Source: a virus (Duplodnaviria; Heunggongvirae; Uroviricota; Caudoviricetes). From it: 62,425 nucleotides of DNA. Positions 26,426-26,989 of the stretch are shown piece by piece. The position numbers and the translations under genes are program-made. The notes under the pieces were generated by a model. It saw only the letters and a list, made by a program, of their open reading frames with translations, was not told the origin of the DNA and ran no database searches. The stretch lies in the IMG/VR virus record IMGVR_UViG_2877269240_000007, one strand, 5' to 3'. The number at the start of each line of letters is the position of its first letter. Position 1 is the first letter of the stretch.

Positions 26426-26989
26426 ATGACTACTCTCCCAACCCTCTCTCAACCTGAAATTGCCATCGTTGATGGTTAGGCTGTTACTTCATCCCTGGCT
26501 GTTGCCAACTTCTTCTCTAAACGTCATGACGATGTTCTGAAAAAGATCCGCATTTTGGATTGTTCTCCAGAGTTTTGTGCCCGCAATTTTGCGGAGACAT
26601 CAATTTTGGTACGCCAGCCCAACGGCGGTACTCGCAAACTTCCCTGCTACCAAATTACCCGCGGCGGCTTCGCCTTCCTTGCTATGGGCTTCACTGGTAA
26701 ACGTGCCGCCCGGTTCAAAGAGGCATACATCAATGCCTTTAACCAGATGGAGAGGAGCTTATCAGGAGCTGGTGCGGCTGACATGTCATCTGTCGCACAA
26801 AACGCCAGAGGCGTATACCTGCATTTGCGTGAAATCCATCAAATCTGGACAAGCCAGCTTTACCCAATGCTTAAGGCCGTTGAATCTCCGCTGGCTGGCA
26901 AACTGTACGACCGTGTAGGTGATGCTGTTTTTGGTGCTGCACTTGTTGATTCCAGGCTGAATGGTTCTGACAAGGAGGTGCGCCCATGA
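26426..26989 (+). pseudogene. Rha/AntA-family antirepressor-like gene (copy B) with in-frame amber codon
   Basis: MTTLPTLSQPEIAIVDG-TAG-AVTSSLAVANFF...YQITRGGFAFLAMGFTGKRAARFKEAYINAFNQME; TAG at 26477-26479; alternative downstream start at 26555. Confidence 0.55.

Follow-up and report, generated by a model that had tools for sequence, protein, structure and literature searches.

A probable inactivating amber mutation in a Rha-family gene of an ipaH-carrying Shigella flexneri prophage

In the window (the whole stretch of 62,425 nucleotides analyzed here), one of two Rha-family genes, copy B, carries an amber codon in place of Gln18. We consider this TAG, with a probability of about 0.86, to be a genuine nonsense mutation that inactivates a Rha-family gene in Shigella flexneri, where the gene lies in a defective lambdoid prophage with ipaH; the premature stop is seen directly, while the loss of activity is what we infer from it. 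The gene, hereafter rha, would be the protein payload of an RNA-controlled switch composed of an isrK-type sRNA, a C4-type RNA overlapping a leader ORF, and the regulator gene itself (Table 1). Ribosomes that start at ATG 26426 would stop after 17 codons, and those that start at the leader ATG 26288 after 63, neither producing a full domain. Any product of a downstream start would lack a large part of the Rha domain and is presumed inactive. The amber mutation would then be one of several lesions of a decaying prophage.

Table 1. Coordinates of the features discussed, in positions of the window.
Feature	Position	Strand	Evidence or remark
ipaH-type genes (LRR_TTSS + NEL E3 ligase domains)	1-1812; 59603-61366	+; -	both window ends, flanking prophage remnants
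Copy A cassette, intact Rha gene	7738..8535	-	isrK 8459-8535, C4 8347-8434, rha 8292..7738
sok antitoxin RNA (hok/sok-type module)	15641-15816	+	117 bits
XRE-HTH antitoxin	25480-25788	-
Gp49/DUF891 toxin	25778-26131	-
isrK-like sRNA with intrinsic terminator	26183..26259	+	Rfam RF01394, 58.1 bits (gathering 50)
isrK terminator, stem followed by T run	26237-26254 (stem)	+	terminator scan
Derived change T>G	26200		isrK stem A-U to A.G, mismatch in 5' hairpin
C4/CI-type antisense RNA (STnc1160/orf45' equivalent)	26284..26371	+	Rfam RF01695, 74.8 bits (gathering 45)
orf45-like leader ORF, ATG 26288	26288..26425	+	open, in phase with the rha ATG
Derived change G>A	26306		C4 stem G-C to A.C
Shine-Dalgarno AGGGG	26413..26417	+	8 nt before ATG 26426; SD:anti-SD -5.6 kcal/mol
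rha copy B, antirepressor-like, now apparently a pseudogene	26426..26989	+	PF09669, phrog_821, homologues 74-96% identical
Amber codon TAG, codon 18	26477..26479	+	from CAG via C>T at 26477
Derived change C>T	26477		Gln18 to amber
Best internal-start ORF, TTG, 127 aa	26606..26989	+	GGAG SD; gene callers' S. flexneri product
Codon 80 GGC (Gly), from GAC (Asp), ITRDGF motif	26663..26665	+	second damaging change, same lineage
Derived change A>G	26664		Asp80 to Gly
77-aa ORF	26986..27219	+	ATG overlaps rha stop (ATGA); PHROG phrog_1153, unknown function
Replication-initiator-like gene, 302 aa	27206..28114	+	with the two genes after it: PHROG phrog_270, E 2.5e-64; Pfam IstB_IS21; cluster names
Derived change G>A	28022		Gly273 to Arg in next large gene
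DnaC-like gene	28116-29003	+	cluster names
DnaB-like gene	29000-30391	+	cluster names
ALIL pseudoknot (IS3-family frameshift element)	36323-36439	-	inside an IS copy; 116 bits

The amber codon and its ancestry

Retranslation of the plus-strand ORF from 26426 to 26989 gave 188 codons with a single internal stop, the TAG at codon 18, in agreement with an earlier note on this DNA that had described the frame as continuous except for this codon. The translation of copy B reads MTTLPTLSQPEIAIVDG up to the amber codon and AVTSSLAVANFFSKRHDDVLKK... beyond it, with AVTSS just past the stop. The same note had placed a sense codon, R, at this position in copy A, and our alignment indeed has an Arg there (ENGRAVTT). 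The copy A protein (184 aa, 8292..7738 on the minus strand) aligns with copy B from residue 1 at 43% identity, and its gene belongs to an isolated cassette between two IS elements. The C-terminus of copy B is unrelated to that of copy A, and what the two copies have in common is confined to the leader and the Rha domain.

The stop is present well beyond the window. Seven loci from separate assemblies (L004-L010) are 100% identical to the window over 25400-28200, TAG included, and among them are the complete chromosomes CP026765.1, CP026871.1, and LR213452.1. An index of the assembly collection has the exact 127-aa product encoded downstream of the stop in 1222 blocks. An exact search of viral contigs with a 33-mer containing the TAG returned one independent 8.2-kb contig (L004), which is 99.93% identical to the window over 7.3 kb; the same 33-mer had no exact match in a genome contig collection that holds one genome per species. 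Since separate assemblies, complete chromosomes among them, carry the identical TAG, it is scarcely conceivable that the codon arose as a sequencing or assembly error. The window hence comes from S. flexneri, in which a large lineage has become fixed for the amber allele.

Comparison with homologs, which the earlier note had suggested as a way to learn which sense codon belongs here, gave a clear answer. Codon 18 is CAG in E. coli O121 strain 201805972 (99.5-99.6% identical) and in two further E. coli (92-96% identical), and a sister S. flexneri lineage (product P0057, 87 blocks) retains CAG as well. Among 78 homologs on viral contigs, 56 have CAG, 20 have CGN, and the only TAG is that of L004. 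At the protein level residue 18 is a sense residue in 145/145 homologs (Q in 111, K in 17, R in 17). The ancestral codon was evidently CAG (Gln), and a single C>T change at 26477 made it TAG.

The gene order of the sister lineage is the same as that of the window: NinB, NinE, HigA and Gp49 on the opposite strand, isrK/C4, rha, the 77-aa ORF, and the replication genes. At five sites the sister lineage and E. coli O121 both differ from the window, and hence the state of the window is the derived one at each of them (Table 1). The sister lineage (L011-L016) has a lesion of its own, a 1-nt deletion at 27533 within the replication-initiator-like gene (27206-28114), where no gene is called. Different genes of one operon are, by this comparison, decaying in different S. 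flexneri lineages.

Four of the five derived substitutions in the 2 kb compared (26200, 26306, 26477, and 26664) fall within 465 nt of the isrK-C4-rha module, and all four look damaging. The change at 26200 shifts the predicted energy of the isrK 5' hairpin from -23.4 to -19.4 kcal/mol, and the change at 26306 shifts that of C4 from -46.0 to -41.6 kcal/mol. The clustering is not significant (rough binomial ~0.08), the module (26183-26989) making up 39% of the compared length. We considered, as an unlikely reading, that the amber codon did not come from neutral decay but belongs to a set of changes through which selection disarmed an RNA-controlled switch for induction. If the disarming was selected, the ipaH-carrying prophage would have been locked in place (domestication), and the cell would have been spared a toxic antirepressor and a burst of replication.

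Start of the gene and effect of the stop

Whether the TAG matters depends on where translation of rha begins. The earlier note had reasoned that homologs starting consistently downstream would put the TAG in the 5' UTR; instead, M1 is aligned with Met in 142/142 homologous proteins that reach this position. In 48 unique homologous sequences, the column entropy by codon phase is 0.38/0.10/0.44 in codons 1-17 and 0.26/0.17/0.81 in codons 19-43, whereas upstream of ATG 26426 the same sequences show no codon periodicity (0.61/0.59/0.63 for phases 1, 2, and 3). ATG 26426 is preceded by a Shine-Dalgarno (SD) sequence, and distant phage homologs and PHROG profiles align from residue 12-14 onward. These measures place the beginning of coding constraint at ATG 26426, with the TAG lying within constrained protein-coding sequence and not in a 5' UTR. 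That the TAG is untranslated leader and the true start lies downstream is extremely improbable: public S. flexneri annotations do begin the CDS downstream, but those starts are forced by the TAG itself, and they leave the shared M1, the coding-type conservation on both sides of codon 18, the SD of ATG 26426, and the alignment of distant homologs from residue 12 without a place.

Database models of intact homologs err in the other direction, being mostly 280-325 aa long with a start ~100 codons upstream of ATG 26426. We rejected this long PGAP-style start, ~300 nt upstream, as the functional N-terminus, since a frame opened there begins ahead of the isrK sRNA and runs through its terminator, in a region whose conservation is of the RNA type and not of the codon type. 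ATG 26426 appears the better choice than models that span two RNA genes.

With Gln18 restored, the product of copy B matches Pfam PF09669 (Phage_pRha) with 91 bits against a cutoff of 29.9, over residues 21-110 and profile positions 1-91 of 91, and PHROG phrog_821 'transcriptional regulator' with E 6e-102. The restored protein is 74-96% identical to Rha proteins (PF09669) of E. coli prophages and Stx phages. Unlike these family members, copy B cannot encode a complete domain; it has no uninterrupted ORF for the whole Rha domain, and the stop falls three codons before the domain. We regard copy B, from its sequence, as a pseudogene of the Rha family and not as a working member. The earlier note had read the TAG as a likely inactivating mutation of a Rha/Ant-type gene, a view that the position of the stop ahead of the domain, its fixation in a lineage, and the ancestral CAG bear out. 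Its label 'antirepressor' is read from context and family labels; 'antirepressor-like regulator' seems a reasonable label for the product. The P22_AR_C / ANT C-terminal domain PF10548 scored 17 bits, under its cutoff of 22.4. A PDB sequence search with the Rha protein returned no match, and an AlphaFold2 model of the intact homolog P0080 was too poor for use (pLDDT 59.8, and <50 over residues 1-38).

We then asked what could still be made from the remaining frame. The first in-frame ATG, GTG, or TTG after the TAG is TTG 26555 (codon 44), at which the earlier note had envisaged re-initiation; the site is a poor one, with almost no SD pairing (-0.9 kcal/mol). Before the end of the Rha domain, a real SD accompanies just one downstream in-frame start, TTG 26606 (codon 61; GGAG, 10-nt spacing, -6.6 kcal/mol), which is also the start that most gene callers choose. 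Given this SD, a 127-aa C-terminal fragment could be made. Public S. flexneri products from this locus are 127 aa (TTG 26606), 144 aa (TTG 26555), and 150 aa (CTG 26537) long, the 127-aa product (P0003) bearing the database name 'phage regulatory protein, Rha family [Shigella flexneri]'.

The SD of TTG 26606, these annotated products, and the fact that the remaining ORF is still open in the lineage could be taken to mean that the gene has been remodelled and not killed, an N-terminally shortened but functional protein being made by internal initiation or re-initiation at TTG 26606 or 26555. We find this decidedly improbable. A start at codon 61 would drop positions 1-40 of the 91 in the Rha HMM, and a start at codon 44 about 23, the latter with its SD essentially absent. 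Moreover, none of the 145 homologs begins there naturally, and the short database entries are marked partial. The remaining part also bears Asp80Gly in an almost invariant motif: of 156 homologs, 143 have Asp at residue 80, 8 have Asn, and 5 have Gly, these five presumably being the truncated S. flexneri forms. An inactivating nonsense mutation accounts better for this combination.

Decoding of the TAG was the other route by which the gene might stay active. Suppression of the supE type and near-cognate read-through of UAG both insert Gln, the residue that was lost here, and a conditionally active gene, decoded by a suppressor tRNA or by programmed read-through, would on that count be conceivable. 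Nevertheless, we judge it very improbable. The suppressor tRNA that the earlier note had proposed to look for does not occur among the eight tRNAs of the window (Met, Arg, Thr, and Gly, twice each), none of which has a CUA anticodon. Furthermore, the TAG is confined to one lineage, with a sense codon in every other homolog, and does not mark a conserved recoding site. Of the two features by which recoding is recognized, a stop conserved among homologs and a cognate suppressor tRNA, neither was found, tRNAs having been scanned within the window. Basal read-through of UAG, in which Gln is usually inserted as well, would yield very small amounts of wild-type protein.

Apart from the loss of Rha itself, the nonsense mutation may affect the genes behind it. 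Approximately 510 nt of rha would be left untranslated, and because the next ORF begins at the ATGA overlap, lowered downstream expression is probable. The 77-aa ORF probably loses its translational coupling to rha, and its expression, perhaps with that of the replication genes behind it, would be lowered by lost coupling together with Rho polarity. A modest C-rich, G-poor stretch lies past the stop (26600-26717, C/G about 1.6-1.8).

The isrK-C4 leader cassette and related systems

The region upstream of rha has the features of an RNA-controlled leader. Compensatory double changes affect 8 of the 27 C4 helix pairs (32 sequences), and at pair 28-41 the window alone among the 32 has A.C. In the predicted fold of 26183-26445, sequence immediately ahead of the rha start is paired with the middle of isrK, and the SD is buried. 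No plus-strand promoter for isrK emerged from a scan for consensus promoters. Immediately upstream, on the minus strand, stands a HigBA/Gp49-type toxin-antitoxin pair (25480-26131), at the place where E. coli O121 has ash/Rha cassettes. The toxin start is ~50 nt from the 5' end of isrK, and therefore the isrK promoter must overlap the toxin gene.

The leader ORF has no SD at its ATG 26288 and no codon periodicity. The motif TTATGGTGGG is nevertheless found in 20/20 unique Rha-linked leaders, at a distance of 138 or 141 nt ahead of the rha ATG (window 26288-26428; loci L017-L096, about 1360-1503). A ribosome that starts at ATG 26288 would meet the TAG as codon 64. The arrangement suggests that translation of the leader ORF would have to continue in phase into rha, which would make it a variant of the Gifsy-1 coupling between orf45 and anrP in which the two frames are fused. 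Although the leader evolves in the manner of an RNA, its frame has no stop codon over at least the last 103 codons before the rha ATG in any of 46 unique homologs. The spacing of the leader ATG (MVGR...), 138 or 141 nt, is kept in three loci (L026, L066, and L088) despite a compensated internal frameshift that alters the peptide.

The closest described parallel is the isrK-orf45-anrP cassette of Gifsy-1 in Salmonella (Hershko-Shalev et al., 2016, PMC4825925), which has the sRNA with its terminator, the C4 RNA, the leader ORF, and the payload in the same order and at similar spacing. In Gifsy-1, transcripts that extend past the isrK terminator are translationally silent until the short IsrK opens the leader in trans; translation of anrP needs that of a 45-codon leader ORF, and AnrP switches on prophage transcription (PMC4825925). 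Our Rfam matches in Gifsy-1 place isrK at 34240-34316 and C4 at 34131-34214, followed by the antirepressor-like anrP (STM2616), and the isrK element coincides with the Rfam match 'a1,b1 targets of C4'. The leader ORF of the window opens with MVGR... codons, as does that of Gifsy-1 (L097 34076-34214), and the predicted SD-burying fold resembles the inactive structure A of the Gifsy-1 paper (PMC4825925). There are also differences. In Gifsy-1 the leader ATG lies 134 nt from the payload ATG and the leader ORF ends in an ATGA overlap, whereas in the window the distance is 138 nt and the leader ORF is fused in phase to the payload; the cassette of the window precedes replication genes, whereas that of Gifsy-1 follows the Q gene; and the payload here, unlike anrP, is broken by the amber codon.

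Orthology of the payload with AnrP was considered and dropped. In BLASTP neither copy A nor copy B has significant similarity to AnrP (copy B, E 0.15). A remote link is that phrog_373 and phrog_63 ('anti-repressor') are matched by the copy B product and by AnrP, in each case over identical profile positions. As for copy A, its N-terminus is Rha-type and its residues 101-172 match phrog_2379, the PHROG family of Gifsy-1 AnrP (window 7738-8292, minus strand, compared with L097 33513-34076).

A C4-family RNA (RF01695) in the leader of the operon is also found in immI of phages P1 and P7 (c4 - icd - ant) and in the CI RNA immunity of P4. The product of an immI-type operon of P1/P7 counteracts repression. 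Unlike P1 immI, the cassette of the window has no icd homolog, and its payload is of the Rha type and not P1 Ant. In Stx 'Eru' phages, 'Rha/Ash' proteins adjoin cI (PMC8951638), and copy B stands directly before replication genes, as in the Eru6/7/9 phages (PMC8951638).

These comparisons bear on a database family. The 'Ash protein family' PF10554, or NCBI 'ash family protein', corresponds to a conceptual translation of the isrK and C4 leader (window 26129-26425, and 8293-8694 on the minus strand; L001 1617-3171), and the N-terminal 100 residues of the 280-325-aa 'Rha family' models are likewise translated isrK and C4 RNA leader. In a 286-aa model, the PF10554 match covers residues 15-109, which is the extent of the Rfam isrK and C4 matches. 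Because covariation of the RNA type is seen across the region and codon periodicity is lacking, Ash would be an RNA leader and not a conserved protein domain. We found PF10554 mentioned in one paper only, which describes a protein domain of unknown function (PMC8951638). E. coli O121 NZ_CP119441.1 (L001) has three tandem isrK-C4 cassettes (1671-1859, 2327-2515, and 2983-3171), each preceding an 'ash family' or Rha ORF, and therefore the isrK-C4 leader behaves as a modular unit, duplicated with different payloads.

Prophage context and meaning

Besides two prophage remnants, the window contains genes for a Q antiterminator, for lysis, and for head and tail proteins of the lambda type, and at least nine IS-type transposase ORF sets as judged by ORF size, one ORF of each of three types having been checked with Pfam. 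The lambda-type portal gene (40250-41843) appears split into a 351-aa ORF and an overlapping 207-aa ORF, with the Pfam match stopping at 288/354, and the gene for the tail-tip/tail-fibre protein J (53223-56703) appears split into 912 and 255 aa. Both look split by frameshifts, and the prophage that carries copy B looks defective. Two near-identical clusters of four tRNAs, Met(CAT), Arg(TCT), Thr(TGT), and Gly(TCC), lie at 20691-21000 and 31513-31823, the second just downstream of the Q antiterminator gene (30897-31313); the last 153 nt of L004 are identical to the second cluster and 96.7% identical to the first.

A nonsense mutation in such an IS-ridden, broken prophage is to be expected. Copy B resembles other pseudogenes of Shigella prophage remnants in having a lineage-fixed nonsense codon within an IS-ridden ipaH prophage in which other genes are broken too. 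By itself it appears an ordinary inactivating nonsense mutation, which has left a pseudogene of an already known family within a kind of RNA-controlled cassette that has been described before. As a further case of regulator inactivation in the remains of a Shigella prophage, it has little importance on its own.

The finding has consequences for annotation nonetheless. The public 127-150-aa 'Rha family' annotations at this locus, deposited in more than 1000 assemblies, would be fragments of a pseudogene, and the observation on 'Ash' could put right many database entries for lambdoid phages, those of Stx phages included. S. flexneri has both alleles, TAG and CAG, which could serve as a lineage marker. 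Lastly, copy B may offer a natural knock-out with which to probe the role of a Rha payload under isrK/C4 control.
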